A stretch of DNA of 64,000 nt from Balanoglossus misakiensis. Taxonomy: Eukaryota; Animalia; Hemichordata. Shown piece after piece: positions 6,901 through 54,900 of this stretch; the stretch's first letter is position 1; every line of letters starts with the position of its first letter. The DNA lies in NCBI GenBank assembly GCA_040954595.2, contig CM082579.2:13889834-13953833 (forward strand). The letters run 5' to 3'. The notes under the pieces were generated by a model. That model was given only the letters and a program-made list of their open reading frames with translations. It was not told where the DNA came from and made no database searches. Both the position numbers and the translations under genes were made by a program.

Positions 6901-6959
6901 CACTGATTTGCTTCCTTCACAGGGAATGGTACTTCCCATGACCACTGGTGGCTACAAGC

Positions 6960-17809: not shown

Positions 17810-18326
17810 GTAAGGCTAGCCTTTTACCTGAAGGTGTCAACTGATGTTGGTTCGAGACCACTTTTTATTCTATTTCTTTTTTTTTTTGGAGAACATTTAA
17901 CGACATTATCATTTTAATTTTTATCATTTTCATAAATCCAATTCATTTCAATATCTACGCTGCGTTTTTTATCTGTCGGGTATAAGAAATATGCACGGAA
18001 ACTTGGTCATTTTTTGACGCAGTTCACTTGGGCAAGTCTGAATACGGAGTGCTCAGCAGAGAGAAAAATAAACTCGCTAAAACCGTGTCTTGCCGACCGA
18101 ATGACCAACCAAGGAACGAAAAAGTCGTTATTTAGGCCGTAATAAAACGCTTTTGTTGCCGAGGAGTGAATTAAGAACGGTCAGATCGTTGCGGTGCAGG
18201 GAACTCTTATTTGCACCGCTGCGGTGCGGAGAAATCCTATTTGCACCGCTGCGTTGCAGGGAACTGGGAACTTCATTGGAGTTATGCTGCAATATAGTGC
18301 GGAAAATTTCTGACTTTTTCGAATAC

Positions 18327-18406
18327 ACATCGTGATGGCGAATGGTTCAGGAAGGCTAGCCTTTTACCTGAAGGTGTCAACTGATGTTGGTTCGAGACCA
18401 CTTTTT
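18327..18406 (+). ncRNA. Putative ~80-nt Pol III small RNA, family unassigned (vault-like B box)
   Basis: A-box-like TGGCGAATGG ~10 nt after the inferred start, B box GGTTCGAGACC, then an oligo-T terminator. Complementary segments acatc/gatgt, ttcagg/cctgaa, aagg/cctt. Confidence 0.55.
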
Positions 18407-18445
18407 TCATATTTCTTTTTTTTCTTGAGAACTTTTAAAGACATC

Positions 18446-25700: not shown

Positions 25701-26206
25701 TTTCTCTGTACTGTATCTCCCAGCGTCCACGGGTGTTACATGTTTATGCTCGGCCAGCCACGTTCTTCAGGTTGTTATCACCTTTTTGTTCGTCAGTACT
25801 TCAAAATAAAATATGTGTGAACTCAATGAACAAAAACTTCTGAAGTCAGTACATTTTTGTCTGTGGTTTGTTTTAAAAATACAATTTGATGCGCCGGTCA
25901 CTAGGACCCTAGGGTCATAGTTCTGAGTGTCAGGCTCATGAAAACAAGAACAATCTATAACTCAAATATTAGATACATACTAGTATTGTAAGTTGCGTCT
26001 TACAAAGCACAATAATGTGACTTCATCCATTTCCCAAACAGAGAAACTAAGACAAATCAGTCAGAGCATCGACCACACTGTTGTCTGTGATCGACAACAC
26101 GTATACGCGCGTCCGTTCACCGCGACAATAATGTGTGTAACGATCGTTCAATTCATTCGATCAGGCACTATGAACATGCCCCCGCCGATTCCACCAGCCG
26201 CCCACC

Positions 26207-27043
26207 TTGTCACCAACACCACTCCCACCACGCCCAGCCGCTGATATTACACCACCGTTCCAAACTACACTACAGCCGGCAGTACAGCCGATTCTCACGT
26301 CTCCGCAGACAACGGGGATGATTGAGACTACTCCGCCTCCACTATGGTTCCCTCCTATCACCGGGGATGTTCTCATACCAGAATCATATATAGACCGGTG
26401 TAAGGTCGTAAGTTGCTCTATAGGCAACTTTGCCAAGAACCTTGTGTTTATGGTTTATTCGCCGAGTGAACGCGCCGGACGTAATTGCACAGGGCGTGTG
26501 TTTGGGGGTACCAAACAGAAATTGAAGTTAAGTCCCAGAAGGCTTAAGAAAGTTGAAGGAGCAACTTTCCGAAACTATTTTAGAAATAATGGACTCCGCC
26601 CTGACCATTAACGTTTGTTTATGGGCAAGGGCGAGGGGAAAGCCAAAAATTCATGGGCGAGGCTTCCGAGCCCATGAATTTTGGCTTTCCTCGAGCCCGC
26701 AAACGTTTATGGTCAGGGCGGAGTCGGTTATTTCCATTATATTACCAACAAAATCAAGAAAACCGTCAAAATTTACGAAAATGTCCCACTAGAGGCCCCG
26801 GAACTTGTGTTACGCAAAATTTTGTATTCACTGAACTGTTTGCTAATATTACTATTCAGATTTACGGGGATGTAAACAAACCATTACTGAGTATTTGTGG
26901 TCAGTGACGTCGTTCATCTCGACCAATTAAAATGCGACGCACAAGCCATGGTAATATTATCCCACGATTTTCCGCGATCCGCCGAGCGCGACGTGTGGTC
27001 AAAACAGTGCATCAAGTCAATCGATAAAGCTCTCCGCTGTTTA
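26207..27043 (+). pseudogene. BEN-domain protein exon (Pro/Thr-rich linker plus BEN), interrupted by a MITE
   Basis: Joining 26581 to 26972 gives SIGNFAKNLVFMVYSPSERAGRNCTG...KLSPRRLKKV...NY-FPRSAERDVWSKQCIKSIDKALR, which matches the BEN domain pattern by eye. Confidence 0.7.
26582..26971. mobile_element. Palindromic MITE (Crypton-like architecture)
   Basis: Long hairpin ~26584-26735. A second inverted pair attatattacc (26737) / ggtaatattat (26950). ATTTT is directly repeated at both junctions. Confidence 0.6.
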
Positions 27044-28238: not shown

Positions 28239-31200
28239 CTATACCACATCAGCTTCCAACAGCACACACAATTTGTCCACTGGTCGATCCAGGGTCGATG
28301 TTTTGGTCTTCACCGTTGCAACACGCACAAATCCCTTCTTGTCTCTTTTCACATCGATGACCACTCCTAGGGGCCAGGAATTTCTTGGTGCAGAGTTGTC
28401 CACAATCAAGACCACGTCCCCCACGGTGAGATTTCTCCTGGGTTTGAGCCACTTCTGCCTTTCCTGCAGCAGGGGGAGATATTCTTTAACCCATCTCTTC
28501 CAAAATATGTCTGCCAGGTACTGTACTTGGCGCCACCTGCGACGAGCGTAGTTGTCGTTCTTGCAAAATATACCAGGTGGTAGATTCTGTGTGGGCTGCA
28601 ACATCAGTAGATGATTCGGTGTGAGAACTTCAAGATCATTCGGATCATCAGATAGCTTGGTGATGGGGCGACTGTTGATAATGGCTTCAACTTCACAGAA
28701 CAACGTCTGCAGCGCTTCATCATCTAAACGAATAGCCTGTTCTTTCATCAAGGAGAACAATATCTTCCGTATGGTTCTGATCTGATGTTCCCATATTCCT
28801 CCGAAGTGAGATGCCGCTGGGGGGTTGAACTCCCACTTCACACTGTGTTGATATAGGGCTTCAGATATTTTGTGGTGATTCCACTTCTCAATTTCTTCGT
28901 GTAGTTCACGATTGGCACCGACGAAATTGGTTCCGTTGTCAGATCTGATCACTTTCACTTGTCCTCTTCTTGCTGTAAATCGTCGAAGGCTGTTGATGCA
29001 TGAGTCTGTATCTAGCGAGTGTGCCCCTTCGAGATGTACAGCCCGTGATCACTCCATACCTCTTCACAGTGCTGCGACCACGCTTGACTTCCAACGGGCC
29101 GAAGTAGTCTACACCTGTTCTCGTGAATGGTGCTTCTTCTGGTGTGATGCGGTCTGCCGGCAGGTCTGCCATTTTCTGCTCACCGACCTTCGCTCTGTAT
29201 CTTCGACAGATCACGCATTTTGCTATAATGCTACGGACTGCAGTGTTTGCTCGCAGGATCCAAAACTTCTCCCTTAGTCTCGCCAACATTGAGTTTCTTC
29301 CCATATGTCCGACCGCACGATGTATCTCTTCTAAGATGAGTCTCGATACTGGAGTGTCCCTTGGGAGGACCATTGGGTGCTTGCTTTCTTCTGGTAGTTA
29401 CGCTCGCTCAAGACGTCCGCCAACACGTACTATCCCATCTTTCAGCATCGGATCCAGCTTGTAAAGCGGGCTGGATTTCTTCACTTCTTCACCTTTCTGT
29501 AGGGCGGTGACTTCTTCCGGGAAGTGACAATGTTGTGTGAAGCGTATAATCGCCTTCTCTGCTTCTTGTAACATTTCGAATGGGAGTGCTGGAATTTCAC
29601 TTTCCTCCTTACTTCCCCTCTTTCTCATCTTTTCTTTGCTGAGCTCTTCTTTACCTTTCGTCTCAGGTTCTTCATCGAGATTTTCTCTCAGCATCCTTTT
29701 CTGTTGAACTAATCTTCTTAGCTTTTCCTTCGCCAAAAGAATCCATCCCACTGTCTTCTTGAGTTTCTTCCAGACGGAAACACGTGATATGATGTCATCA
29801 ATCACCAGTGTGGATGTGTCTGCTATTACGGCGTTTATCTGTTTCTTGACCTCTGGGTCATCCTCCGGTATAATCTTCGATACCGATTGTTGTGTAGGCC
29901 ATTCATTCTCCGGTCCCCATAGGAACGCTGGGCCTTCTATCCATCTCTTGTTTCGGAGAAACTGGTGTACAGTCAGCCCTCTGGAAGCATCGTCAGCCGG
30001 GTTAGACTGTGTGTTTACGTACTTCCATTGGTGCATTTCCGAACCTTCACGAATTATGTTGATTCGATTTGAAACAAAGGTATGGAAACGGGTGGTCTCG
30101 TTGGCGATGTATCTAGGTACTGACATGCTGTCTGTCCAGAAATATACCGCATCTATACGCTGATCCAACTCCCTCTCCAGCAACTTGTTCATTCTGACTG
30201 CCACGGTAGCTGCCATCAATTCCAAACGAGGAATGGTGGTCTTCTTGAGTGGTGCCACTCTGGCTTTTCCCATCAGTAGAGCGCAGTGAATTTCTCTGTC
30301 TTCATTCATCAGACGAACATAGGACGCAGTTCCATACCCATGCTGACTTGCATCGGAAATATGATGTACTTAACACCGCTTCACCTCTCCAAAATCAGCC
30401 GGCTTGAAGCATCTATCTACTGACAGTTCTTCTAGTTGTGGGAGATCGGTTAGCCATTGTCGCCATCTCTTCTGATCTCCTTGACTGATCGTCTGGTCCC
30501 ATCCGAGATTTCGGTGGCACAGATCCTGTAGCAATATTCTCGCTGGCAGTATGAACGGTGATGCTAATCCCAGCGGATCGTAGACCGAACTGACGACTGA
30601 TAATATGCCCCTTCTGCTTACAGGTCTGTCTTGGATGTCTATTTTAAATCCCAGAGTGTCTGGTTCGACCGACCAATACACCCCTAGAGCACGTTCGGTT
30701 GGCAGGTCATCATAGTCGAGCTTCAGTTGCTTAACTTCTTTGCCTCTCTCTTGTACGGGAATAGATTCCAAGACCTCACGACTGCTACTGATCCACTTCG
30801 TCAGACGAAAGCCTCCCATCTGGCAAGCTGCTGTCAGTTCTTGTGCTAACTTCATAGCTTCGGGCACACTACTCACTGACTTGAGACAGTCGTCCACGTA
30901 GAAATTTCTCATAATGGTGTCGATGACTTCAGTATTGAATCTGTGGCTGTTGTCTTGAGCAGTTCTGTGTAGGGCTGTATTCGCACAACTTGGAGATGAT
31001 ACTGCTCCAAATAGATGAACCCGCATTTGGTAGACTTCTGGCTGGCTGTTAATGTTTCCCTCAGGCCACCAATAGAAGCGTAGACAATCACTGTCTTCTT
31101 TGGGCACCTGTACTTGGTGAAACATTGCTTCTATGTCTGCCATCAGCGCTACTGGTTCCTGACGAAATCACAACAGCACACCGACAAGATTGTTAGTCAG

Positions 31201-32425: not shown

Positions 32426-32524
32426 AATCTAATCAATGCCGCAGTGAAGGGTGATGTTGCAAAGATTCAGTCGCTGATAGCTGATGGATATGATGTCAAT
32501 GCAAGGGGTAAATACCCAGGGCAG
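32426..32524 (+). CDS. Ankyrin exon (N-terminal cap-like)
   Basis: ttacag|NLINAAVKGDVAKIQSLIADGYDVNARGKYPGQ|gtaagt, 99 bp, phase 0. Confidence 0.85.
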
Positions 32525-33778: not shown

Positions 33779-33877
33779 AATGATTCCACAGCATTGCATG
33801 CAGCGTCCTTCAAAGGTAAATTGGATGCTGTCAGGATGTTGATTAGCCATGGTGCAGATGTCAATGCGAAGGATGAG
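33779..33877 (+). CDS. Ankyrin exon
   Basis: ttccag|NDSTALHAASFKGKLDAVRMLISHGADVNAKDE|gtacgt, 99 bp, phase 0. Confidence 0.9.
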
Positions 33878-34695
33878 GTACGTGAACTGACTTATCACTT
33901 TATTATGGATAATGTGGCCACACAATTGGATAATAAAAAAATGCCTTTGAAAAAGACCTAATTACAACACTCTTATTTTCATCCAAAATTACTTTGCATG
34001 ATCCAAATTCAATGGGAAGAAACAAGCTAACCCTGAACAAGAAGAGGGAAAGGCCAAAAAGTATTACCCATACTGATTTAGTTTTACTAACCATGATACC
34101 CTTGGGATCCAGCCATAGGAAGGACAGTGGGACACATTGCACTCTAAATTTAACAATCTTTACAATTTAGCCAAAGATGTTGAACCATAGTGTATTTGAC
34201 ACATTTGTTCCGAATGAATAAATATGTTCCAGAAAGTAAATTTTGATGCATTTTTTTGTGTTTCACCAAAGTTAACACATTTTTATTTTTTTTCAAGCCA
34301 TCTCTGAAATTTTGCTGGCAATCTTTTTTTAAATCTTCCACATCCCCTCCATCCTTAGTTAAGCTATGGAGTCTAAAACATCCAATGTTAAAAACTATAT
34401 GACCAGTCAAAGCGTTTTCCTCGCTGTTAGAATCAATTGAGATTCTTCACCGTCATTCTTTGATCTGTATTCATTTTAACAGTCGGCAATTTTCATTTTG
34501 TGTGTAGAAGGACTGTGCATTATCCTTTCAAATCAGTCAGTATGCCATTCTTGCTTGTTTTTTTGCAATATGGCTGATACTTTTGATATTTGTTTATTTA
34601 TTTGTAGGTTTGTTTGTTTGTTTGTTTAAAGACACCTCATATTACATTTCAATTTTTGTGACATTGTTCCCATGCTTCTCCTTCATTACTTACAG

Positions 34696-35065
34696 GATGG
34701 AGTCACCCCTTTGAATGATGCAGCAGGGTTTGGTGGTGAAGGCTGTGTCAGATTGTTATTGGAACACAAAGCTGATGTTACCATACAAACCCAGGTAAAT
34801 ACCAACTTGACTTCTGCAGGTTAATCTATCAGTATGGAATGATTTATTCATTCATTTTTTGTTTGTTTGTTTGTTTGTTTGTATGTTTTTTGTTTAAGGA
34901 AAATGACACATTACGTTTAATTTTTGTGACATTGTTCTCATGCTCCTCCTTCATTACTTACAGTGGGGAGACACCCCTTTGCACTCTGCAGCAAGGAGGG
35001 ATGTTGGTGAAGGCCGTGTCAGATTGTTATTGGAACACAAAGCTGATGTAACCATACAAAACAAG
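34696..35065 (+). CDS. Two cassette-family ankyrin exons (34696-34794, 34964-35065)
   Basis: DGVTPLNDAAGFGGEGCVRLLLEHKADVTIQTQ and WGDTPLHSAARRDVGEGRVRLLLEHKADVTIQNK, with the same intron flanks as the main array. Confidence 0.88.
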
Positions 35066-37799
35066 GTAAATACCAACCTGACTTCTGCAGGTAAATTCTA
35101 AAAGTATGAGCTTTCTCAATAGTGCCATTTCCTCTGTAGTTTTCTTAGAAAATTGTGTCTGGGATACAATGTATATATTTGTCCATTGCCCTTTGAATCA
35201 AAACTACTCCCTCCATTGGTCAGGTGTTGTACAGATAGACTGATGACAGTCCATGCCAATCCTATCACAGAACGTATCAGATAGGGTGATTGTCTGTCGG
35301 CCTCCAGCATCTGCCAACTCCTGTCTGGTACCTAATACAATTCATCATAAGGAGGTGCCATATAATTTGTCACTGTCCTTTGAATCAAAACTACTTCCTC
35401 TCGGCCAGGTGTTGTCCAGACACAGGCAAGTATTGATTCATTATGGTGATGTGATTGTCTCTCCTATATCTGAGACATTTGATCTCCACTGTGAGCAATT
35501 TGGAGTTATGAGAAAGGGGGATTGTCTCCAGCATCTGCCAAAAACTGTCTTGTTGAACATAAGGATGTTGTTGTTTATTGCATTGTTTATCGTCAATCTT
35601 TTGTGGTTTAAATAATAATCTCATTATTGGCACAGCGATTTCTGTCTGTCCTTCTGTAGACAGATTTTGTTCCACTCATATCTTGAGAGAAATTGAATCC
35701 AATGATATGAAATTTTGTATGTAGCATTGTTATGATAAGTTCTAGATCTGATAAGATTTTGGTGGGTATGGCTTATTAATAAATTCTCCTTTGCATATTT
35801 GTGTGTGGTCGAACGTTAATTCACTACATACACATGTAGAATAACATAAACAGTGTCTTGTATCAAACATAATTAATGGAAAAAGGGAAGCGAGAAAGAG
35901 AGAGACTTTGTCCCTTTAATATTCAGGAATTTACTTTTCTTGTATACGTACACTCTTATAATGATTGTAAATCTTGAGAATGGCTATCAAGTTGACAACC
36001 CTCGCACAAGTACATCATGTACATAAACAAAAATAGTCTGGTTTGTGGAGCCTCCTCCCTTTTTTACAGGAAGTACTTTCAAAATATGTTTATGCAATCA
36101 GTCCACACTCATGCTCAGTTTTGTGTCAGAATTATAGTCATAGCAACATTTTGAGTAAGACTTTACCAGAAGAACTTGTTTTCATTGCGGCTCTGATTGG
36201 GGCCGTTTTAAAAAGGGGTTTGTTTGGCAACTTTTAGGACCGAAGGACGGATGCGCAGCCATGGTCACATCACACATGTCAAGTTGGGGACTTGCTGGGG
36301 GCAGGGGTGCTTGTTGACGGTGCCGAGAGGAGTCGGCCAGTTTTAGCTTGTACTTCAGGCCGAATAGCACAGTGCCAACCCAATTTACCTTTTATAAACT
36401 TTATAAAATATAATACATTTTAACATTAAATTGTTCAGTCGGATGATTTTTTTCATCATAATGAGCAACACAGCGGCAGCATTTGGATTGCTCTTTCTCT
36501 TGGAAATAGCTCAAGCTTATAAAACATGAGGTCTGTGCGGCTCCACTCCTCAGCTTCTCATCACTGTCTGTCACTTACCCAATCATTTCAAAGGGGGTGA
36601 TCAAGATGGCCAGAACAGCAAGTTTTAACCAACCAGGTTCCAGAACCTGAGAGAAGGTGCTAAAAGCATGCAATAGATATATTGATGAGATAAACATTGG
36701 GAACAATAGGATGAAGGGAAGTGTGACTGGTCCAATCTGTTCTGTTTTAGTGTGGGGCACGGCTGGAATGGTTACACAAATGTCCTTGAAAGTTAGTGCT
36801 ACTGTGGCTTCCAATGTTATCTCTTATGAAGAGTTTTGATAATTTTGTTTGTTCTTTATATTACATGAAAAGAATGACTGCATTCATTGCATTTAATTTT
36901 GTTTGCCACACATTCCCATTGGCCACAGTGTCCACTGAAGTCTTTCTTTGGTTATTAGACTTTTTGATGCAGTGCGATGGAGAAAGGGAATCAGTGTTAA
37001 CTTTCTTCAGATGGTTTTTTTTGGTGAAATTCAAGTTTTTTTTATTTAAACGCTATTTATACAAATAACGAGTGACACCATTGCACAACTCTACTTGATA
37101 TTGTTGGACCACTCAGTAGAAATTTATTTTAATGATGATTGATTTATCCCTTGTCACATACAATTTCTCTGTTATTTCCCCTTTGATCGACATCGTTCAG
37201 TCTGCACAGCTTGGCTACTTTGTGCTGAGAACAGTCTGATGCCCTCCTACAGGAAATAAACATAGTTTGGTTAGCTCAGATGTTTGATCTGTTTCCACAT
37301 AAATCTCCACATATCTCAAATTTTTCATCATATTGGAGATGAGATGTGATTATTCAAAATTCTTCTGACAATTCTACTAAATGTCACTGTAGTTGTTTGC
37401 TAAATCTTCTTCTATATTGTGCAGGTTGCAAAAATAAATTGGTCCCATTCACTAACATCACATCACTGTCAGTTTTTTGATAGAAAATCATAAATAAAGT
37501 TCAGTTTAAAATTGGTGTATTGGTTATCCGTAATGTTATCTGTTTTGCAAGTTGTCAAATTTGAGTTTGTTTGTGAATTATTTATAGTAACTTTTCTTTC
37601 TGTATCAACTGGCAGATATTTTGTCAGAATTCTTTTAGCTCGTTAAAATGCATGTATAAAACTGAATTACACATCTTGTGTGTAGAGTCGATACTGTTTC
37701 TGTTCAAATGCCATTTACTGTTGGTTAATATTATCCACAAGGGAGTTTGCGATTATTTGTCGTTTGTGTGTTTGTTCGATCGTTCATTTTAACAAAATA

Positions 37800-40700
37800 A
37801 CCTCATGTTACATTTCATTTTTCTTCTCATCATGCTCCTCCTTCATTACTTACAGAATGAAGACACCCCTTTGCATTATGCAGTAAGAGGGTGTCGTGGT
37901 GAAGGCCTTGTCAGATTGTTATTGGAACACAAAGCTGATGTGACCATACCAAACAAGGTAAATACCAACATGACGTCTGCAGGTTAATTCTGTCAATGCG
38001 GATATATTTATTCATTTTATTGTGTGTTTGTCTATTTGTTTGTTTGTTTGTTTGTTTGGTTAAGGAAATTTCACATTACATTTCAATTTTGTGACATTAT
38101 TCTCATGCTCCTCCTTCATTACTTACAGACAGGAGACACCCCTTTGCATTATGCAGCAAGGAGGGATGGTGGTGAAGGCCTTGTCAGATTGTTATTGGAA
38201 CACAAAGCTGATGTGACCATACAAAACAAGGTAAATACCAACCTGACTTCTGCAGGTTTATTCTATCAATGCGGATATATTTATTCATTTATTTGTTTGT
38301 TTGTTTGTTTACCAAAAATTCACATTAGATTTCAATTTTTGTGACATTATTCTCATGCTCCTCCTTCATTACTTACAGGATGGAGACACCCCTTTGCATG
38401 ATGCAGCAAGGAGGGATGATGGTGAAGCCCATGTCAGATTGTTATTGGAACACAAAGCTGATGCTAACATACGAAACAAGGTAAATACCAACCTGACTTC
38501 TGCAGGTTTATTCTATTGATGCGGATATATTTATTCATTTATTTGTTTGTTTGTTTGTTTGTTTGTTTGTTTGTTTAAGGAAATTTCACATTAGATTTCA
38601 ATTTTTGTAACATTATTCTCATGCTCCTCCTTCATTACTTACAGGATGGAGACACCCCTTTGCATGATGCAGCAAGGAGGGATGATGGTGAAGCCCTTGT
38701 CAGATTGTTATTGGAACACAAAGCTGATGCTAACATACGAAACAAGGTAAATACCAACCTGACTTCTGCAGGTTTATTCTATTGATGCGGATATATTTAT
38801 TCATTTATTTGTTTGTTTGTTTGTTTGTTTGTTTAAGGAAATTTCACATTAGATTTCAATTTTTGTAACATTATTCTCATGCTCCTCCTTCATTACTTAC
38901 AGGATGGAGACACCCTTTTGCATTATGCAGCAAGGTTTCGTGATGAAGGCCGTGTCAGATTGTTATTGGAACACAAAGCTGATGCTAACATACAAAACAA
39001 GGTAAATACCAACCTGACTTCTATAGGTTAATTCTGAAAGTATTGAAATATTTTTTTGTTTTTTTTTGTTTAAGGAAATTTCACATTATATTTCAATTTT
39101 TGTGACATTATTCTCATGCTCCTCCTTCATTACTTACAGGATGGAGACACTCCTTTGCATTATGCAGTAAGGGATGGTGATGAAGGCCATGTCAGATTGT
39201 TATTGGAACACAAAGCTGATGTGACCATACAAAACAAGGTAAATACCAACCTGACTTCTGCAGGTTTATTCTATCAATGCGGATATATTTATTCATTTAT
39301 TTGTTTGTTTGTTTGTTTATGGAAATTTCACATAATATTTCAATTTTTGTGACATTATTCTCATGCTCCTCTTTCATTACTTACAGGATGGAGACACTCC
39401 TTTGCATTTTGCAGCATGGAGGGTTGGTGGTGAATGCCTTGTCAGATTGTTATTGGAACACAAAGCTGATGCTAACATACAAAACAAGGTAAATACCAAC
39501 CTGACTTCAGCAGGTTTATTCTATCACTGCGGATATATTTATTCATTTATTTGTTTGATTGTTTGTTTAAGGAAATTTCACATTAGATTTCAATTTTTGT
39601 GACATTATTCTCATGCTCCTCCTTCATTACTTACAGGATGGAGACACTCCTTCGCATGATGCAGCAAGGAGGGATGATGGTGAAGCCCTTCTCAGATTGT
39701 TTTTGGAACACAAAGCTGATGCTAACATACGAAACAAGGTAAATACCAACCTGACTTCTGCAGGTTTATTCTATTGATGCGGATATATTTATTCATTTAT
39801 TTGTTTGTTTGTTTGTTTAAGGAAATTTCACATAATATTTCAATTTTTGTGACATTATTCTCATGCTCCTCCTTCATTACTTACAGAGTGGAGACACTCC
39901 TTCGCATGATGCAGCAAGGAGGGATGGTGGTGAAGGCCTTGTCAGATTGTTATTGGAACACAAAGCTGATGCTAACATACACAACAAGGTAAATACCAAC
40001 CTGACTTCTGCAGGTTAATTCTGAAAGTATTGAAATATTTTTTTGTTTTTTTTTTGTTTAAGGAAATTTCACATTATATTTCAATTTTTGTGACATTATT
40101 CTCATGCTCCTCCTTTATTACTTACAGGATGGAGACACTCCTTTGCATTATGCAGCAAGGGATGGTGATGAAGGCCATGTCAGATTGTTATTGGAACACA
40201 AAGCTGATGTTTACATACAAAACAAGGTAAATACCAACCTGACTGCTGCAGTTTATTCTATCAGTGCGGATATATTTATTCATTTATTTGTTTGTTTGTT
40301 CGTTTACGGAAATTTCACATTATATTTCAATTTTTGTGACATTATTCTCATGCTCCTCCTTCAGTACTTACAGGATGGAGACACTCCTTTGCATTATGCA
40401 GCAAGGAGGGTTGGCAAAGGCCTTGTCAGATTGTTATTGGAACACAAAGCTGATGCTAACATACAAAACAAGGTAAATACCAACCTGACTTCAGCAGGTT
40501 TATTCTATCAATGCGGATATATTTATTCATTCATTTGTATGTTTGTTTGTTTAAGGAAATTTCACATTAGATTTCAATTTTTGTGACATTATTCTCATGC
40601 TCCTCCTTCATTACTTACAGGATGGAGACACTCCTTCGCATGATGCAGCAAGGAGGGATGGTGGTGAAGGCCTTGTCAGATTGTTATTGGAACACAAAGC

Positions 40701-41410
40701 TGATGCTAACATACAAAACAAGGTAAATACCAACCTGACTTCAGCAGGTTTATTCTATCAATGCGGATATATTTATTCATTTATTTGTTTGTTTGTTTGT
40801 TTAAGGAAATTTCACATTAGATTTCAATTTTTGAGACATTATTCTCATGCTCCTCCTTCATTACTTACAGGATGGAGACACTCCTTCGCATGATGCAGCA
40901 AGGAGGGATGGTGGTGAAGGCCTTGTCAGATTGTTATTGGAACACAAAGCTGATGTGACCATACAAAACAAGGTAAATACCAACCTGACTTCTGCAGGTT
41001 AATTCTGAAAGTATTGAAAGATTTTTTTGTTGTTGTTTTTTTGTTTAAGGAAATTTCACATTACATTTCAATTTTGTGACATTATTCTCATGCTCCTCCT
41101 TCATTACTTACAGACAGGAGACACCCCTTTGCATGATGCAGCAAGGAGGGATGATGGTGAAGGCCTTGTCAGATTGTTATTGGAACACAAAGCTGATGCT
41201 AACATACAAAACAAGGTAAATACCAACCTGACTTCTGCAGGTTTATTCTATCAATGCGGATATATTTATTCATTTATTTGTTTGTTTGTTTGTTTGTTTG
41301 TTTGTTTGTTTGTATACGAAAACACATTTCATTTCAATTTTTGTGACATTGTTCTCATGCTCTTCCTTCATGACTTACAGAAAGGAGACCCCTTTGCATT
41401 TTGCAGCATA
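37800..41410 (+). repeat. Tandem array of ~250-bp exon+intron units: 14 single-ankyrin exons plus one truncated unit
   Basis: Exons 37856-37957, 38129-38230, 38379-38480, 38645-38746, 38903-39001, 39140-39238, 39387-39488, 39637-39738, 39887-39988, 40128-40226, 40374-40472, 40621-40722, 40871-40972, 41114-41215. All are 99 or 102 bp, open, and flanked by acttacag| and |gtaaataccaac. A broken unit starts at 41381. Confidence 0.95.
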
Positions 41411-42997
41411 TGTCATATAATTTTGTCATTGTCCTTTGAATCAAAACTGCTCACTCTGTCGGGTCAGGTGTTATACAGGCAGGTGTGGAAACGATTTGCA
41501 TTCCTTTCTTTCTTTCTTTGTTAATCAATCAATTGTTGTTCTATTCATTGATCATCACCCCCCTGTATCATGAACATCACAAGGCAATGCATTGAATTCA
41601 GCTCTTCCAGCTAGTGGCCGCACTTGCTTGATTTCCTGCGTGTGTCTCTGGGGATGAAAAGAATGCATATGCGTCTTTTCCTAATTTGCATATTTTGAAT
41701 GGGTGTTCCAACGTAAGTAACCGTTCATTGACTTCCAGCTCGCATCGAATACACGTTAGGGACTGTTTTGACGGCTGGGGGGGGGGGCAAGTTTGGGTCA
41801 TCGATTTTCAAAATCAGGCCGACCCCCCCTTCACCCTGGACCAAAAAATGATGACCCCCCCTTTGACAGACCCAAAATATGATGACCCCCCCCCCGCTGA
41901 AAACATTCGCCGTGCTGATCCTATGTACACTGTATGCAATAAAGGGAATGAGGCTCCTCACACCTCAATTATAAATTTCTTAAAGTAATTGAAGTATATA
42001 TAATAGTATATCGTTGCAATAAAAAATATATGAACAAAATAAAATGACAAGTCAATACAATAGAAAATTTAAGAAAATTTTGTAAAATACGGTGCTCAAA
42101 GTTGCATTCGAATGAACTCTAAAGCAAATTAACTCAATGTTAGGCAGGACAAATTTTAATTTTGCCACTCCACTCAAAGTAAACATCGGGGGTAGGGTGG
42201 GTAGAAGTCTGCCGTGGTACACTAGACAAACCAGCGAATAAATGATATGTGGCGAAGAATGGAGGGGGAGGGGTGTGCGAGGGGGTGTCCCCCTCCCACA
42301 TAAGAAAATTTTGTAAAATATGTAGCTCAAAGTTGCATTTTTATGAACTCAAGAGCAAATTATCTCAGTGTTTGGGAGGACCTAAAATTTGACTTATAGG
42401 TGTGCGTGCCTCAATCATCTGATGAATGTATTCATCTATGAAAATTTGTGATCCATTTTCAGAACGTAGTGACTCCTTGTCAAGAGGCAGGAAGGAAGGC
42501 TGGGCGGGGTGCAGGCACCAATATTGCAAGAGCCTTTGTGGAATATCATTTTGACAATGAGAAAGTATATCAGGCAAGTATTGAGTTAGATTTAAAAGGG
42601 CAAGGTTACTCACTTTTGATAAAACAGTGAAATTGTGTCAGTTACCGACCACCTCTATATAGTGGCCACTTTGTTACAGTCCCTGTGCAGTTAACATGGG
42701 CAATTATTGACTTGTATATACAGGCCACCTGTCTATTAAGGCCAATTTAGGAAAGTCACTCTGACTGGCCAATTTGGACTGTGAGATTTGGCTGTATTTC
42801 AGTTATTTACCAATTGGCTCTTTCTGTTGTTCTAAAAGATGCTCATTGACCAGTTTTATAAAGCTTACCGGCAACTCACACCTGACACATGGATATTTAA
42901 ATCCATTTATTTTTTACCAAAATTATTTAACAATAGTGTCCATAATATGCATGGTGTGGTATAATTGTCATAATCCTGTACTTTACAGCTAGTTCAT

Positions 42998-43343
42998 TTA
43001 AGCAATAAAACACCCCCAGCCATGGTATACCACTCGATTTTGACCAGTTCACGACATATACGCACTCGCTATCGCTCCTGCGTATATGTCGTGAACTGGT
43101 CAAAATCGAGTGCGTATATGTCGTGAACTGGTCAAAATCGAGTGGTATACCATGGCTGGGGGTGTTTTATTGCTATTATATTATGCCAGTATATTGAAAC
43201 TTTGCATAAAACATTTTAAAAAGGCATTTTCTTTGACTATGCTATATGACTGTGGTATATGGCTAATATATCACAGTCACGTGTCGTGTCTCGACCAATA
43301 AAATAGCGTGATTTACACCATCAATATACTGGTATAATATAAT
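42998..43343. mobile_element. Palindromic MITE (Crypton-like architecture) in a ROCO intron
   Basis: ~64-bp perfect inverted arms at 43001-43064 / 43111-43174 with a 32-bp internal duplication. A second inverted pair at 43175-43197 / 43321-43343. Confidence 0.7.
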
Positions 43344-44163
43344 CAATCATATATGTTCTGTTTTCATCAATGAAAATACAGGCAGTTATAAACTCAGTGT
43401 ATGACAGAGATGACAAAAGAGACCTGATCAACCATCATAAGGTACGTCATAATGTTGATAATAAATGGCTATGAAAACATATCATATCACTAGTGTATTT
43501 GAATTTTTCTTCTATATTTATAACATGGAAAACATAAAACCAGACTGTCATATAAGTTTTTAACTACATACTTATTCTATTGTGCCAGCTAGGAAGGCAT
43601 TAAAGGGACATTACCTATAACTTTTGGCTTTATTTCCAGATTTTTTTCCTTTTGTGTACAAAATGCAATTTCATGTTCTTCTCCAAACTGCATGCTAATA
43701 TGCCCAGTACTCAACTTGTGTATATTGCCTGTCTCTGTAACAACCATTGTTATTGTTGACTCATGAATTCTAGTCCGGACTTCAATTCAAATTTTGCAAA
43801 ATAACAATGTTGAATATACACAAAGAGTACACAACTATCGAGGTGTGCGTCACAAAGAGATGACAAACTTATGCAAATAGAAGTTATGGAAAAAATATGT
43901 TAAATTTGGCAGCTCATGAGGCTTTAACTATGCATTATTTCTATAGTGTTAATGATAGCTTCCACATCATAAGCACATCATAATAGTGTAGTTAACAATG
44001 TAAATTATATTTTTTGATACTAGCGTTTTTATCAATATCTTTTCTGAAGCAAAATGTCATGTGACTTCTTTGAAGACATGGTGTTTAATTGAAAGGCATG
44101 TAAATTGAGTGTAAAAATTCCCAATATATATAACACATAACATATCTGTTCAAATTCTGACAG

Positions 44164-45963
44164 GTGTTTTCCCGCCAAAAAGAATTCACAGCACTCATGA
44201 GACAACCTGGTGTCAAACGTAATACTACAAAGATTGTGTTAGCTGGATACGGTGCGAATGGCAAAACTACGCTCAAAGAATCATTGCAGCGGGTGTGTAG
44301 AAATCTTTGATTATAAATGCCAATTATTGCTGTTTTTGAGGAGTGAAGGATTTGTGCAAATATTAAAGTTTTCATGAAGACTACATTTCAGTGGAAATCA
44401 GGGTACATATTTTGTTGACCAACCAATTCTCCAAATATTTTATATTATTACAATATGATTGGCATTAATCAAGCTTGCTGATTGGCCCGAGTCGCGGTTT
44501 ATATCCTCAACGAGAAGACCTGAACCCTGAACAGTGAATAACTAAAAAATAACCAAAATGGGACACATAGAACAGAACGCCTCGCCTCGCTCAGTGATTA
44601 TTTCCCGCCAAATATGCTAAGTTTCACCTGGGAGGTCTTATATCCGGAATCAAATACTCTCGCTTGCCGTTTATAAGTTTACAACCTCTAAATTGTGAGA
44701 AAATCATCACTTATGTTCATATATTACAATGCAGAACTTTGTGCAAGCAAAATTGACTCGACGGTCAGAAGAGAAAGCACCTTTACCAGGGAACATGCAG
44801 TACACACCAACACCCGCCATAGATGTAGCCACATTATCCATACCCAAGATTGGCAAGTTCAGTGTGTGGGACTTTGCAGGACAAACAGAATACTATGTCA
44901 CACATAATATGTTCCTAAGAGTCGAGAATGCAGTGGTTTTATTGGTCTTCAAAATGGCTGAGGACAAGCAGGATGTAGTTTGGACACCAAGAAAACTTAT
45001 GCAACAGCAGAGACAAGAGGTGGGTTGTTGTTTTTTTTGTTACTGATGATAAGTGATATTAATATTTTGGGCAATTATGGAATAAAGGTAAAGATGAAAC
45101 TCAGAAAGGGCACAGTGCATATATTACAATATTTTTTTTATTACTAAGCAGTGCATCAGTGAATTAGGTGGTGCAATATTGTGAATGAAATTAAAGTAAA
45201 GATGAATGGCACAGTATATATATTTGTGAAACATTTATCTCTTTTTGTTTTTATCCAGATTTAGGGACTGATTGAATATAATATGATTGATGACTTTATA
45301 TTCTTCTTCATGTCTTTCTTTAATAGGTGACATCATGGCTTGCATTCCTTAAGGCAATCATACCACAAGATATGGATGAGGGTGGGAGTAAACCAAAAGT
45401 GATATTGATTGGAAGCAAGGCTGATTTGTTGAAAGCTGAACACAAGAAAGAAGGTATGTTCAGTACATGTTTAGATAAAAGGTGACAAGAGCGAGGGTAT
45501 TCACACAATTGGGAGCCTGGTGTGGGAGTACACTCAATCTGATTAAAACCAGATGTAGTGTTGGGCGCTGTCTTTACCTTTGCTGATTCTTGGCTGTTCT
45601 GTTCGAAAGGGACACCCATACTACATCTGAACCTATGCAAAAGGAGATCTCATTACTATTCAACATTTTACCTATTCAGATAGTGTGATTGATGTAGAAT
45701 TTCACCGGATGCTTTCAAAAAATACAAAACAGCACCAAAGTGGCCTCTTCTGTGTATATGTCCATACTTTGTAAATAAAAATCTATCAAGAGATCATTAC
45801 TTTTTTCTTGATAGCTGAATTGGTGATGAGGGAAATACTCCAGACAGCTCAGAAGACCTTTGGCAAATACCTGAATATTCTTGATGAGACATTCATACTG
45901 AATTGTCACAACTCGCAGCATAATGATATGCACAGATTGCGTGAATGTCTACGAAGTGCAAAG
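44164..45963 (+). CDS. Roc GTPase domain exons (44164-44292, 44735-45019, 45327-45453, 45815-45963)
   Basis: P-loop KIVLAGYGANGKTTL, switch I TPAID, G3 VWDFAGQTEYYVTH, G4-like LIGSKAD. Canonical splice sites with matching phases. Confidence 0.92.
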
Positions 45964-47722: not shown

Positions 47723-47893
47723 AGAGAAGAATACATACCAAAGTTGTGTGCTAAGATACTTGATGGAAGAAGCAAATGGATTGTGAGCAGTTTCCCGGTC
47801 ATCAAATGGAAAACATATATAGAAAGAGTGAAAGAGTTGGATCGTTTCATTGATGAAGAGTTTCTAAAGAAAGCTACGCACTACCTTGGGGAG
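47723..47893 (+). CDS. COR domain N-terminal exon
   Basis: ttacag|REEYIPKLCAKI...FPVIKWKTYIERVK...FLKKATHYLGE|gtaagt, 171 bp, phase 0. Confidence 0.85.
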
Positions 47894-48520: not shown

Positions 48521-51500
48521 TTAATAATAATAATAATAATAATACTTTATTTCAGACTTTAAAAAAAAGTCCATATACCCAAAAGAGAGAAGAAAAAAAA
48601 ACACTAATGAAAATACTCTGGAAAATCTGAAACTGAGACACACACACACAAAAAAAAACTCTGCAAAATTACATGATATACAATTGCTTTCGCCAATGTT
48701 TGAAAAATATGCTGTCAGTCGCTCTATCTGATGAACAGATCGCATCAAGTAAAACATTAGAAGAATTTTCGAGTCTACACTTAAAACTGTACATATTGCG
48801 TCTAAAAACTTCACCAAGTGACAATACATGGTTTGTAGCAAACATACCCGATGCACTGCAAAATGGCGGAAGACCGAGAAGTCTTCTCCAAACATTATTG
48901 TACATAGTTTTAAATTTTTTCATCGGTTTAACTTTAAAGGATGCCCACAAACTGCAACAGTAAATATTACTACAATATGCCAAAAATACAACTTTCTTCA
49001 CATCTTGACTACAATGTTGAAAATGTCTCAATAGCCTGTTTGCTCTAACGCAAAATGCTCTTCTCTGTCGTTCAATATCTTCATTATCACAACCATCACA
49101 AGATATTACATGGCCCAGATAGGTGTGTTCAGGTACAAACTTCAAAGTGATGTCATTAAGTTTAACCGAAGGAATTCTTTGAACGCTCATATTCTTCCCA
49201 TTAAAAAGCATGCACACAGTTTTACTAGAATTATAAATGATATCATAATCCTTGCCATAAATTTCACAAATTCTAAGAAGACGGCGTAGACCCTTAACAC
49301 TTGGACTGAGTAGAGTCATGTCGTCAGCGTAACCTGAAGTGTTAGCGCTGACACCACACATGGTACAGCCAACTTTGGCTTTACAGAGTGCATTGATAAG
49401 ATAATCAATGTAGACATTAAAAAGATAGGGAGAGAGTACTCCCCCTTGTCTTACACCGTTAGAAACAGAAAACAACTCTGAGGTTTCATTACCCCACAAC
49501 ACAGTAAACAATTGATTTCTGTACCAGTAATATAAAATTCGAACAGCATACAAGGGAACATTCCTGTCGATGAGCTTGTTAACCAGTTTAAAGTGATTAA
49601 CTCTGTCAAAAGCTTTTGAAGCATCCAGAAAACAAGTAAACACTGGTCCTCCATTGCTGGTGTAGTAGCTAATGATTTCTTTAAATGCAAATAAACACAG
49701 GTCAGTTGAATGTTCTCGCTTGAAACCAAATTGTAAATAATGAGAGGTAAGAAACTCCTCACAACGAGAAAGTAAAATATGCTCAAAAACTTAAGAGAAA
49801 ACAGTTGCTAGTGCTATCGGCCGGTAGTTACTGGCATCACTACGAAGCTTAGTTTTATCCTTAATAATTGGAACTAAAATAACTTTGATAGCCTCAGTTG
49901 GCAGGTAACCATGATCAATCATAGCATTAATACAACAAGTCAAAATGGGTAAAATAGAGGAGTCTGAGAATTTGAGGTGCTCAGCTGAAATATTGTCAAT
50001 GCCAGCTGTCTTGTCGTCAGGTAACTTATGTATAGCAGAAATTACTTCGTCTTCAGAAACATACATATCAGAAGAAAAGTTAACATACTTCATTTTCTCC
50101 TCGATGTCATTTTTACCAGTCTGAGCCTGGACAGAATTCAAAATATCACTGAAATGCTTGTGCCACATAATTGCAATTTCACTCTCACCAGTCGCTCCAC
50201 CTACAGTGTCAGAAAGTGGCGTTTTTCTGCTAGTTTGCTTTCTGACTTCCTTCCAGAAGTCGTTCTGTTTGTGGCAGCATAAATTGTCAGCCATCTTGTC
50301 AGCCCTATTTTGATTCTCAATCTTTTTACAAGCACGTAAAGCATACTTAAAACGAGCTCTGAAAGATTTCTTGGTTTCAAAAAGCGGGCCTTGTTTTGGT
50401 TTACCCCCATTAACCCATAATAAAAACATGGAACGGGCATAGTCGTGACTTTCTTTTACAAAATCGTTCCAGCCAGGTACAACATGAACTTTCTGGTGAA
50501 ACTTACGCCTAATGGTATATTTTGCAGCACAATTCAATGCGTCCACAATACTACTATAACAAGTATCAATTGCCTGTAAATGCAAAGGGTCTGTACAGTT
50601 CACATTAGTGCAGAATAACTGTTCGGATAAATTAATCTTATCAATCTTGGCTTTGGTACAAGGGTGTAGGCGGATATATTCTGCTGTGACAATTTTTTCC
50701 AATCAACTCGAAAATTACATTGCTTGAAGGAACTACTGCTGAATCTTTCATCAGCAGAAGTGTTGAAATGAACCTCTATTGAAACAGGAATATGGTCGGA
50801 GTCAACAACATTGCAAAGGCTCGAAATTGAAAGAACATTGCTATGAGAAACTTCAGTGGTAACACAGTGGTCAATCCATGAAGTACTGCCATGAGCATCG
50901 CTAATCTAAGTAAACGTACCAGAATCCCTGCCTAGCAGCTCAACATCAGAAACGATGTAACCAAATTGCTCACAATGCTCCATCAACTCACGGCCAAAGC
51001 CTGTATCAGTAGTTACATCAGCATTCCAGTCACCAATAAAAAAGACATTCCCAGTGTTAATATCAGAAACAATGGAATTGATTTTCGCCAAGTACTCACT
51101 GAACACTTCAAAATTATCATTAGTATTGGTGGGCAAATAACAGTTTACAATAACAAGTTTGTCAGTATCATTTTCTAAAACTAAACCAAGCAAGCGACTA
51201 TCAGCAAACTCAACAATACTGGCAAGTTTGCCAAGCGATCTACGCCAAAGAATTGCAACCCCCCCCCCCCCCCGTACGGTCTACCAATACGGAGTTCAGA
51301 CGAATCAAAAGCAGATACTCCGAATGACATAAAATCCAGATGTATGTCATGTAAAATTGATAGCTCTTCCTTAGCAAGCCAGTGTTCTTGTAAAAGACAA
51401 ATATCATGGGTTTCACACAATTCATACACAGAATGAAAGCTTGATTTCACAGAGCGACAGTTAAATGACACAATCCGTAAACTATTTTTGCGTTTTGTCA

Positions 51501-51830
51501 TGGCGTCTGAGATTTATAGTATTTTCTTACAAGAGTATCCTGAGGCGTATTTACAGGATCAAGGGCAACTCTAATGTCTACATCAGATAATTCAACCATA
51601 AAAGAAGCATACATATCATACTTTGTTTTCAGTTTTGTACAGTTCACACCTACATCAAATTTGTCCGCAGCATAGCGCTCAACATTTTCACATGTTGTTG
51701 TTGGATTCAGCCGGGACACAAAAAGTGTACATACACGCCGCGGTCTTGCGCCTTGAAGGCCAGCTGTACTCAGCGCAGTTCCAATCACAGGCTGGGTTCT
51801 CTTAAGAGGGATCTGGGGGTGAAAGGCTTG
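48521..51830 (-). mobile_element. RTE-X-like LINE in the last ROCO intron (ORF1 3' part plus disrupted ORF2)
   Basis: ORF1 end 51498-51788 (LFVSRL...KLKTKY...ASF). ORF2 from 51501: SFNCRS, LLQEHW, GDWNAD, NYRPIAL, FLDASKAFD, GVRQGGVLSP, GYADD; it ends at 48669. AATAAA plus a (TAT)n tail at 48521-48552. Confidence 0.9.
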
Positions 51831-52192: not shown

Positions 52193-53447
52193 ATGTTCCA
52201 AATCGAGAGTACCCTACCAGATTCAGATGACGTCATTGTTCTTGATCCCCAATGGTTATGTTCTAGAATATTCGGTCCCATGCTGGCTCCTGAAATATTT
52301 GAGCAGTTTGCAAACCGCTTGCCGCGGAAGTCCTTACATATGAGAAGCGAAATTGAGGAAGTTTTCCATGGTCTGGCAGATATTGATTTGCTGATAAATC
52401 TTCTCAAAGAGTTTGCCCTTCTCTACGAGGTCATTTCTGAATCCAATACTGTAACTGGGTATGTAATACCTGGGTTGTTGGACACAGATATGCCTGCAAA
52501 TCAGTGGAAACAGGATGCTACTAATTTACTATGGCAGACGGTTCCAATGCAGAGATGATGCTGATAGTTTCTCGCCAGGATTTTTCCCCCGACTTCACGC
52601 CCGAATAGAATGCCATTTCCGAAAGATCAACCAACAAACAAGTGGTATATGGAAAAATGGCATCAAAGTGTGTCACAATGCAGAAGGCTTGGTGTATATG
52701 ACAAAAGGTTGGAGAGCTATCCATGTTTGTGTTAGAGCAGAGAAAGAAGAGGAAATCGGCGAATGCTACAAATTATTAGAGACAATAACTGATATTGTCT
52801 ATGAAGTGTTAGAGATCTGCTGTCCTGGTACAAGACTTGACATCCACGTGTTGAGTTCAGATTCTCTTCGAATCCATCGCAACCCTGAAGATGTCACATT
52901 CTATACATTGAAGCAAATTCGGGAAGCAGAAGAGAGGAATGAGAAGGTGTACAACGAGGAGATGGTGATTTCAGAAGCAGCTACTGACTTTCTTTGTGCT
53001 GGGTATGATACAACCATCCTCTGACACAGTGGATATGAAAGTGATGTCAAGTGGATGCTGAAGGATGCCCTCAAGATATTTTCTAATATCATGGATATCA
53101 TCCGTTTATCCGGCAATGACTACAGGGCTATGGCAGACTTGATGGGGATCCCTCGCATGGAGGTGGATTCATGGCAATACAGTGCATTGATTCAATCCCC
53201 AACACAACATGCTTTATCTGTTTGGTCCAAGGGCTGTGGAGGACAACAACGTGCAGGCCAACAGCCAACTGCAGATAAGAAATTCTGTAAGAGCAATTTT
53301 TCCAACCTGGTTAAAATTTTTGAGCAAGAAAGTTGTGATGTCTACGCTGCCAGAGAAGAAATACATGAGATGTTCCAAAAACTTGGTGTGTCAGCTGATC
53401 ATCATGATGTTGAAGGTGACATGGCTAATCTACATCTTACATCTTAA
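52193..53447 (+). pseudogene. Terminal exon: COR remainder and death domain, with frameshift and nonsense codon
   Basis: IVLDPQWLCSRIFGPML, YVIPGLL, then a frameshift, YYGRRFQC...FSPGFFPRL, IWKNGI. TGA at 53022, then in the same frame GNDYRAMADLMGI...SPTQHALSVW...LVKIF (death-domain-like). Confidence 0.85.
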
Positions 53448-53544
53448 GATGATGACATCAACATCTCTGAAGCAGACCATTGTGACGTCAGTATATCAAT
53501 TTCTGATTAGTATGGCAAACGATGGCAGTATTTCCATGGAACTT

Positions 53545-54900
53545 CTCACATTGTCAACCATTCATTGGACGAGCCTTTGCAATCTGCTTACAAGCCAGGA
53601 CACAGTACTGAGACTGCTCTCCTCAAAGTAACAAATGACATTTTGCTTGCTCTTGATGAAAAAAGAGATGTTTTCTTGGTATTACTCGATCTTTCCGCAG
53701 CATTTGACACTGTGAACCATACCATTTTACTCAATCGCTTAAGAGACCGCTTCGGTCTCTCAGATACTGTTCTCATGTGGTTTAAGTCATACCTTTCCAA
53801 TCGTAGTCAGTGTGTACTTGTAAATTCCACCCAATCACCTTTTTATCCGCTCGACACTGGGGTACCACAGGGATCAGTTCTTGGTCCCATACTTTTCAAT
53901 ATGTACACGTCTCCATTAGGTGAATTAGTTCAAAGTCATGGTTGTCTTTATAGTTTTTATGCAGATGACTCTTCACTTTATATGTCTTTTAGTAAAGACA
54001 ACGCAGCAAGAACTGTTTCAAATCTTGAACTTTGTATTTCTGATGTTAGGTTTTGGATGTCTGAAAACTTCTTGTGCTTAAACGATGATAAGACTGAATT
54101 TGTTATTTTCTCTGGTATTTTGGGTGATCTGTCTGCTAGAGGGATTTCAGAAATTCGTGTTGGCGATTCTCTGATTCCCGTCCATTGTCAGGCTAAGAGC
54201 CTTGGAGTGATCCTTGACTCTTGTCTGACAATGAAGCCACATATTGGACAGATCTGCCGCTCTGCCACTTTTCATTTACGTCGCATTGCGCTTATCCGCA
54301 AATATTTATCTCATTCAGCTACAGAGCAATTAGTTCATGCATTCATTACGTCTCGAATTGATTCATGTAATTCACTTTTATTTGGGCTCCCGAAGTATTC
54401 AATCAACCGTATCCAACGCGTTCAGAATATTGCTGCTAGAATTGTAACTCGTTCTAAAATCACCTGTCACATCACTCCAATTTTGTATCAGTTGCACTGG
54501 CTACCTGTTACAGAGCGTATTGTTTTTAAGATGTTAGTTCTCATTTTTAAATCCATTCATAAACTTGGTCCAATCTATCTTTCTAGCATGACTAATCTAT
54601 ATGTTCCATGTCGCAATTTAAGGTCAGCTGATCAGTTCAAACTCTGCCCTGTTCGATCACGCACCAAGAGTTATGGTGATCGCGCTTTTACTGTTGCTGC
54701 TCCAATTCTTTGGAATAATCTTCCACTCACCATTCGCCAGGCACCAGACTTATCTGTTTTTAAATCAAATGTTAAAACTTTACTTTTTAAATCTGTTTTT
54801 TAGCCATTTGTTGTATTGTACTTTTGCTTTAAGCGTCATTGATCACATTTTTTTGTGGATACTGACGCTATACAAATAAATTATTATTATTATATTATTA
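53545..54900 (+). mobile_element. 5'-truncated L2-clade LINE (RT ORF 53565-54803)
   Basis: QSAYKPGHSTETAL, LLDLSAAFDTV, GVPQGSVLGP, FYADD, HITPILYQLHWLPV. 3' stem-loop agcgtca...tgacgct followed by an (ATT)n tail. Confidence 0.92.

Follow-up and report, generated by a model that had tools for sequence, protein, structure and literature searches.

Introduction

Exon-cassette diversification of ROCO receptors has already been proposed in brown algae, for their LRR-ROC-COR genes (Zambounis et al., PMC3341825; Teng et al. 2024, PMC11378527), and pseudogenes are frequent among the ROCO genes of Ectocarpus (PMC3341825). Concerted and positively selected ankyrins have likewise been proposed for fungal NLRs with highly conserved ANK, WD and TPR repeats (Dyrka et al. 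2014, PMC4986451). In animals, an expansion of at least 17 ROCO genes with LRR, TPR, CARD and death domains is described in Trichoplax (PMC11378527) and LRR-Roc-COR-TIR genes in cnidarians and molluscs (PMC5094078, PMC9334734), while Trichoplax, anemones and Aplysia are mentioned as having ROCO genes that carry CARD, death or TIR domains. Here we describe an ankyrin-Roc-COR gene in a stretch of 64,000 nucleotides (hereafter the window) from the hemichordate Balanoglossus misakiensis (assembly GCA_040954595.2, contig CM082579.2, positions 13,889,834 to 13,953,833 of the forward strand). A first-pass annotation of the window, made from its letters alone, had drawn parallels to the brown-algal ROCO genes and the fungal NLRs, and these agree with the published accounts (PMC3341825, PMC11378527, PMC4986451).

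In the reading that we find most probable, the window holds a disabled copy or allele of an ankyrin-Roc-COR gene that lacks a kinase and has a predicted death domain. Its recombining one-repeat exons carry an excess of amino-acid change at the predicted binding surface; its working form would be a fast-evolving intracellular sensor of non-self or damage with NLR-like logic, signalling through the death domain. Animal genes commonly devote one 99-nt exon to each ankyrin, and the exon size is therefore not the surprise; the surprising part is the homogenised array with selected face residues and swappable effectors.

An array of one-repeat ankyrin exons

The array comprises 16 cassette exons, named E01 to E16, at 34696-41215 (coordinates are positions within the window and all exons of the gene are on the + strand). 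Eleven of them are of 102 nt and five of 99 nt, and all are flanked by AG/GT splice sites, in phase 0 and free of stops, which confirms the 16 open phase-0 exons of 99 or 102 bp reported by the first-pass annotation. Its sequence claims also hold, as the 31-nt core is invariant in 15/16 cassettes and the shared donor motif gtaaataccaac stands directly after every one of the 16 exons, with no match on the opposite strand. The 16 encoded peptides are all distinct, and the cassettes share on average 88% of their nucleotides and 77% of their amino acids, with a maximum pairwise amino-acid identity of 97%. The introns had been described as near-identical, which is true of 14 of them, near-copies of 138-171 nt around a GTTT microsatellite, and untrue of intron 2, which is 2790 nt long. 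The exons E01 and E02 (34696-35065) form an older and more divergent pair, whereas E03-E16 (37856-41215) belong to a tandem unit of ~250 nt of exon plus intron. A 17th cassette at 41381-41410, not recognised in the first-pass annotation, is broken and frameshifted, with an intact acceptor and a 2-nt deletion. It ends after about 10 codons, where sequence resembling the intron behind E02 takes over (41411-41481 and 35356-35422 share 80% identity).

The amino-acid variants listed earlier for residues 1 and 8 and the loop motifs are present as stated, but the changes are not confined to residues 1, 8 and 10-18, since residues 29/30 and 32 and the framework vary too (in the framework, TLLH occurs in 1/16 cassettes and TPSH in four). 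That indels are of whole codons only is correct, all being one-codon losses; they lie inside an AGG-AGG/GAT-GGT run, where slippage alone can give such codon-sized deletions.

An AGGT motif (AG directly followed by GT), preceded by CTGAC and lying within a short AACCTG...CAGGTT inverted repeat, was seen 25 nt behind the cassette donor (e.g. at 38254-38257). The motif is retained in 15/16 introns despite changes nearby and resembles a recursive splice site, with the branch point very close, and it may merely have been copied with the unit. Its position and the symmetry of every phase-0 cassette exon would suit a Dscam-like or somatic system, in which an animal makes many receptors through cassette skipping or somatic rearrangement. 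The LRR exons of brown-algal ROCO genes are alternatively spliced (PMC11378527, section 15), and the broken 17th cassette retains its acceptor and must therefore be skipped or included as junk. Nevertheless, we regard such a system as quite improbable here. The splice sites are uniform and strong and the introns short, favouring constitutive inclusion; among the 25 longest of 67 inverted repeats, no docking/selector-like pairing was found, those that touch the array being matches of the GTTT repeat to A-rich sequence, although short pairings may exist; and no recombination-signal-like motif was noticed by eye, without a dedicated test.

Recombination among the cassettes

Recombination of the cassettes, as supposed in the first-pass annotation, is supported both by our own test modelled on the pairwise homoplasy index (PHI-like) and by a four-unit duplication. 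The test was run with four window sizes, and in the core set of 13 cassettes 73 of the 190 informative site pairs are incompatible, with incompatibility growing with distance (p 0.003-0.02 across the four windows). With all 16 cassettes two narrow windows gave p 0.0007 and 0.002, a signal aided by same-codon neighbours and gap columns. The exons E08-E11 and E12-E15 represent a four-unit block duplication, the two blocks being 95% identical vs 87-91% in five other registers, and mosaic changes followed later. An older block duplication links E01-E02 with E03-E04 at 84% identity (34601-35100 against 37763-38265). Site incompatibility and block duplications therefore show unequal crossover together with conversion-like exchange.

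Excess of amino-acid change at the predicted binding surface

Counted as distinct changes from the majority sequence, the cassettes hold 40 amino-acid-changing and six synonymous variants, and the two neutral classes agree with each other (synonymous 6/66, introns 15/150). The binding positions of ankyrin repeats are 2, 3, 5, 10, 13 and 33 (PMC4308713). They were mapped onto the cassettes by alignment to designed ankyrin repeat proteins (DARPins), after the cassette alignment had been viewed. Position 14, which we take from DARPin design to belong to the same set, was added. On this face, 16 of the 52 possible amino-acid-changing variants were observed vs 6/66 synonymous (ratio 3.4, p=0.003), and the ratio is similar in subsets, being 3.8 in the core 13 cassettes (p=0.024) and 3.6 in the 11 gap-free exons (p=0.005). 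The earlier placement of the variation on the face randomised in DARPins is borne out by this excess, but only in part: some half of the hypervariable residues (13-18) belong to the helix1-helix2 turn and not to the positions classically randomised in DARPins. In that turn 13/39 possible amino-acid-changing variants were observed, a ratio of 3.7.

Spatially, the significant departure is found in helix 2, which is cold, with 2/65 possible changes observed (p 0.0013 for all 16 cassettes, 0.05 for the core 13). In the hot codons synonymous change is not elevated (2/23, p=0.019 vs 29/91), which argues against a plain mutational hotspot. A CpG hotspot was ruled out, the consensus being without CpG. 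None of the 46 variants is a stop, an outcome with a neutral chance of 0.16 that hence proves nothing. Per-position variability is weakly correlated with that of the repeats in relatives (P0002, rho 0.36, p=0.04; P0009, 0.30, p=0.10), and no correlation was seen with P0007 and P0030. Repeats within proteins have, as a rule, a ratio of nonsynonymous to synonymous rates (dN/dS) below 1 (PMC5120217, section 8), and the cassette array is therefore atypical.

Gene layout and the predicted death domain

The gene runs from two ankyrin exons through the cassette array, a cap exon and a linker to Roc, which takes up four exons, then one COR exon and finally a long terminal exon. The N-cap ankyrin exon (32426-32524) and the second, non-cassette ankyrin exon (33779-33877) are both of 99 nt and in phase 0; the former is placed by tblastn to aa 10-40 of the relative P0001 with a weak Pfam match (Ank_4, E=0.11) and the latter by Pfam (Ank, E=3e-10). 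The start-codon exon upstream of 32426 was not located, nine ATG-GT candidates being present, and close relatives begin about 10 aa ahead of the first ankyrin. No kinase open reading frame (ORF) was found upstream of the gene in the 64-kb window, the first exon of the gene itself not being located. Behind the array follow a C-cap ankyrin-like exon of 111 nt with a GC donor (42463-42573, donor at 42573/42574; tblastn to P0004 and P0008), a 60-nt linker exon (43382-43441; tblastn to P0004 and P0001), the first Roc exon with the P-loop (44164-44292), three further Roc exons at 44735-45019, 45327-45453 and 45815-45963 (Pfam Roc, tblastn) and a COR-A exon of 171 nt (47723-47893; tblastn to P0002 and P0008). 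The last exon (52193-53447) encodes COR-A, COR-B and the predicted death domain (about 53025-53400), as judged from Pfam, the model and fold match. The intron between the cap and linker exons holds a feature resembling a miniature inverted-repeat transposable element (43001-43174), a perfect inverted repeat of 68 nt inside which 32 nt are tandemly duplicated.

A P-loop Roc GTPase followed by COR, the defining order of ROCO proteins, is present, with COR split by a frameshift in the window's form. Pfam gave E=6e-8 for Roc, 2e-6 for COR-B, 0.002 for COR-A (below cut-off) and a sub-threshold 0.023 for the death domain. When the C-terminal 140 residues were modelled together with 16 relatives, the model had six helices (mean pLDDT 78) and adopted a death fold. 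With Foldseek the top nine rows were death domains at weak E-values, none of them <= 0.001, and with VIA-align death-fold entries took the top 19 of the 25 listed rows, the remaining rows having Z of 4.4 or below; the best entries were Pelle (Z 11.3, rmsd 2.9, 100 residues aligned) and MyD88 (Z 11.2). The C-terminal domain is accordingly best described as a predicted death fold, and the ANK-Roc-COR-death order assigned in the first-pass annotation is supported by Pfam, model and fold match, its death domain resting on prediction and the sub-threshold Pfam match.

A broken copy and its other forms

The last exon carries two lesions that the first-pass annotation had overlooked, a 5-nt deletion behind 52523 that shifts the frame within COR and a TGA at 53022-53024 ahead of the death domain. 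The window was compared with public DNA contigs of a single sample sequenced in three runs, two of them denoted X1 and X2. Across 52523, two forms are present in X2, the window's (an exact contig of 70 nt, depth 1031) and one that retains the five bases (depth 3200); X1 carries the longer form, and at 53022 one of its contigs reads Arg in place of TGA. The P-loop has Ala in the window and Gly in the X1 and X2 contigs and in the Ptychodera flava relatives. The roughly 3:1 depths fit extra near-identical copies, pooled animals or simple heterozygosity alike. Tandem arrays are prone to mis-assembly and no listed contig spans this one, yet we find it scarcely credible that array or lesions are an assembly artefact, because all 16 units differ in sequence, the window's form at 52523 is found in X2 and similar arrays exist in relatives. 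Contig variants were also seen at two hypervariable codons, 35007 (Gly to Asp, E02) and 40177 (His to Arg, E12), giving combinations absent from the 16 assembled exons; they may stem from another allele, another copy or other cassettes.

About 60 nt past the stop codon of the gene lies an insertion with the reverse transcriptase ORF of a long interspersed nuclear element (LINE) (53511-54901, + strand). It is probably missing from the commoner form, to judge from a 726-nt X1 contig that reaches a 37-nt piece found at 55055-55091. This piece is a recurrence, 95% identical and 1.6 kb behind the gene, of part of the COR-B exon (52948-52984).

In the long unique contigs the window differs from the commoner form at 4/942, 2/599 and 1/394 letters, most such contigs being below 1%, and one 112-nt bubble differs at 6 letters. 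The divergence between cassettes is 11.5%, and therefore most of the cassette divergence likely came before the loss of function.

Several points weigh against a selected receptor gene at this locus. The window's copy is null, since its spliced frame as assembled ends at aa 1071 without reaching COR-B or the death domain, and it is thus unable to make a receptor. The stop-free base at 53022 is not listed in the X2 contigs over that place, the frameshift-free and stop-free states were seen on separate contigs and not phased together, and a neighbouring X1 bubble alters a conserved Phe. In the cassettes, the whole-exon excess of amino-acid change is borderline (p 0.05-0.07; p 0.01 when compared with synonymous and intron variants pooled) and the synonymous baseline consists of six variants only. 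The helix1-helix2 turn was chosen post hoc with the data already viewed, and a sliding window of 11 codons found no significant cluster at residues 8-18 (p 0.11-0.20), where the first-pass annotation had seen one. The framework, at 11/137 and a ratio of 0.9, shows no purifying selection apart from helix 2, and its TPLH motif has become TPSH in 4/16 cassettes. The PHI-like test on all 16 cassettes was not significant in the wider windows (p 0.13 and 0.39).

A rival account is neutral turnover. In this view a decaying copy lets the 250-nt unit, with its GTTT microsatellite, expand and become homogenised by itself, while drift under relaxed constraint and triplet slippage supply the variation. 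The frameshift, stop, P-loop change, broken cassette and probable LINE insertion of the window's form, the framework ratio and the TPSH cassettes all agree with it, the codon losses and two of the 13 turn codons look like slippage, and young repeats are often under relaxed selection (PMC5120217). However, under neutral turnover the face ratio should be 1 where 3.4 was found, and synonymous sites in the same codons should not have been spared; the divergence between cassettes appears mostly older than the loss, and dN/dS below 1 is the rule for within-protein repeats (PMC5120217, section 8). We therefore consider neutral turnover unlikely and diversifying selection on a recombining array the better account.

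A family of kinase-less ankyrin-Roc-COR proteins

The closest relatives are Ptychodera flava paralogues (19 of 20 hits) and one Saccoglossus protein, labelled 'DAPK1-like' and 50-71% identical, most hits with full coverage falling at 54-64%. A quick tree built from 32 rows places the gene among the P. flava paralogues (support 98), within rows from Glandiceps and Saccoglossus, which makes an acorn worm the likely host. When representatives at 50% identity were searched, 113 relatives came up, and 28 long proteins hand-picked from 135 were scanned for domains. Of these 28, 15 combine ANK and Roc/COR with a C-terminal death, CARD, death+caspase, CARD+caspase or GT4-conflict domain, and none has a kinase domain; the kinase catalytic-loop pattern was likewise found in none of the 135 relative proteins, many of which are fragments. 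Named sources of the relatives include amphioxus, sea star, brittle star, Saccoglossus, lungfish and newt. Near-identical repeats occur in 4/27 relatives with at least three detected repeats (P. flava twice, Glandiceps and amphioxus; mean nearest-neighbour identity 0.82-0.93), and highly conserved repeats are put at 0.8% in metazoans by the own measure of an earlier study (PMC4986451). Literature searches found no published description of this ankyrin-Roc-COR family, subscription papers and supplements being outside their scope.

Among the relatives, P0044 (Asterias rubens), P0047 (Branchiostoma) and P0050 (B. belcheri) are ANK-Roc-COR proteins ending in death+caspase, CARD+caspase or GT4-conflict glycosyltransferase domains, and P0050 has identical internal repeats. 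Ankyrin caspases are termed unobserved in deuterostomes in PMC11463336, yet P0044 and P0047 carry ankyrin and caspase domains with Roc-COR between them. P0031 (Pleurodeles waltl) and P0032 (Protopterus annectens) are kinase-less ANK-Roc-COR-death proteins of about 950 aa, and these newt and lungfish proteins lie beyond the four human ROCO proteins named in PMC11378527.

The diversifying selection may be real and the ligand other than a pathogen, the receptor serving in self/non-self or gamete recognition or chasing a fast-evolving host partner in developmental cell death. Nothing in the analysis identifies the ligand, DAPK1 as the best-known relative acts in general cell death, and allorecognition genes are among the fungal repeats of such kind (PMC4986451). 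Against this, lineage-specific expansion, pseudogenes and the swapping of effectors (CARD, caspase, GT4-conflict) would be more typical of pathogen-driven families, and we give a non-pathogen ligand only a small chance.

A proposed mechanism

If the working gene is the sensor proposed above, unequal crossover and gene conversion in the germline, acting between the 250-nt units, would alter the number and order of the repeats while keeping the frame, and selection would favour new residues at positions 3, 10, 13, 14 and 33 and in the helix1-helix2 turn. Binding of a ligand would then switch the Roc-COR GTPase and cluster the death domains, as in an NLR with reversed polarity, and the gene copies would undergo rapid birth and death. 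An immune role of the working gene is suggested by this arrangement.

More tentatively, and with somewhat less than even confidence, we propose that deuterostomes have an unrecognised NLR-like class of intracellular receptors with Roc-COR in place of NACHT/NB-ARC. Such receptors would amount to a DARPin library made by nature, in which one-exon ankyrin cassettes are rewritten by recombination, and may also be combined by splicing in a single animal, ahead of an exchangeable effector (death, CARD, caspase or glycosyltransferase). The kinase-less proteins of lungfish and newt would be persisting members, and DAPK1 might be a relative capped with a kinase. If true, an animal ankyrin version with death-fold and caspase effectors adds a receptor class to the immunity of invertebrate deuterostomes, hidden under the label 'DAPK1-like', and Roc-COR gains a testable role as an NLR-like switch.

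Other features of the window

The window is dense in mobile elements, judged by eye from their ORFs (872-2491, 3332-7797, 13630-20026, 28242-31167, 48672-51513 and 53511-54800). They include LINE-type reverse transcriptases, a DIRS-like element with a tyrosine-recombinase-like ORF and a partly duplicated Tx1/L1-like LINE. A fragmented BEL/Pao-like element lies just upstream of the gene and a LINE within its last intron, both by eye. At 26174-26608 a Pro/Thr-rich ORF is followed by a BEN-domain-like stretch, also judged by eye.

Comparison with known systems

With the brown-algal LRR-ROCO genes the window gene shares one repeat per symmetric exon before Roc-COR, exon shuffling, diversifying selection and pseudogenes, and there too an immune receptor role is proposed and not proven. 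The brown-algal repeats are LRRs of 72 nt per exon in phase 2, whereas here they are ankyrins of 99 or 102 nt in phase 0. The host here is an animal, the C-terminus is a predicted death fold and the introns are homogenised along with the exons. Alternative splicing of the repeat exons is known in the algae; for the present gene the search of public runs listed no RNA run, an outcome that says nothing about its expression. In sum, its repeats sit singly in symmetric exons that are shuffled and diversified by selection, and they are not the 72-nt LRRs of the algae.

Fungal NLRs resemble it in their near-identical ankyrins in concerted evolution, in positive selection on the inner helix and hairpin, and in the design of sensor, NTPase and death effector. 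They differ in having NACHT or NB-ARC where this gene has Roc-COR; its polarity is reversed, with an N-terminal sensor, and each repeat is its own exon. Repeat-number polymorphism has been demonstrated in Podospora, whereas here one sample with fragmented contigs is at hand. The fungal study counts repeats >85% identical across at least 100 aa, and the cassettes have a mean pairwise amino-acid identity of 77% and a maximum of 97%, not calculated by the paper's own measure. The gene therefore belongs to neither class, because its repeat type differs from the first and its NTPase from the second. Its central NTPase is Roc-COR, and it falls outside the NLR/STAND proteins as defined by NACHT/NB-ARC, while a sensor repeat, an NTPase and a swappable effector are found together in 15/28 relatives, in reversed order compared with animal NLRs.

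DAPK1 and the RefSeq 'DAPK1-like' proteins of hemichordates, amphioxus and echinoderms have the same ANK-Roc-COR-death order, and the window gene is 54-64% identical over COR-B to the P. flava and Saccoglossus proteins. In contrast to DAPK1, it has no kinase or calmodulin-binding region, and it belongs to an expanded family with a homogenised hypervariable array and swapped effectors. It is a ROCO protein and not a DAPK1 orthologue. The ROCO proteins of Trichoplax, cnidarians and molluscs similarly join animal Roc-COR cores to repeat domains and immune or death effectors, but the available portions of their accounts give no ankyrin cassette array and no diversification test.

Lastly, the DARPin and ANK-N5C libraries (PMC4308713) have, like the cassettes, a constant scaffold with variation at positions 3, 10, 13, 14 and 33. 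In the cassettes, unlike the libraries, positions 2 and 5 are nearly fixed, the variation is natural and in the germline, and 11/16 repeats carry one extra residue in the hypervariable helix1-helix2 turn. If the proposed receptor is real, natural variation falls on much the same surface of the ankyrin as is randomised by engineers, with a loop in addition.

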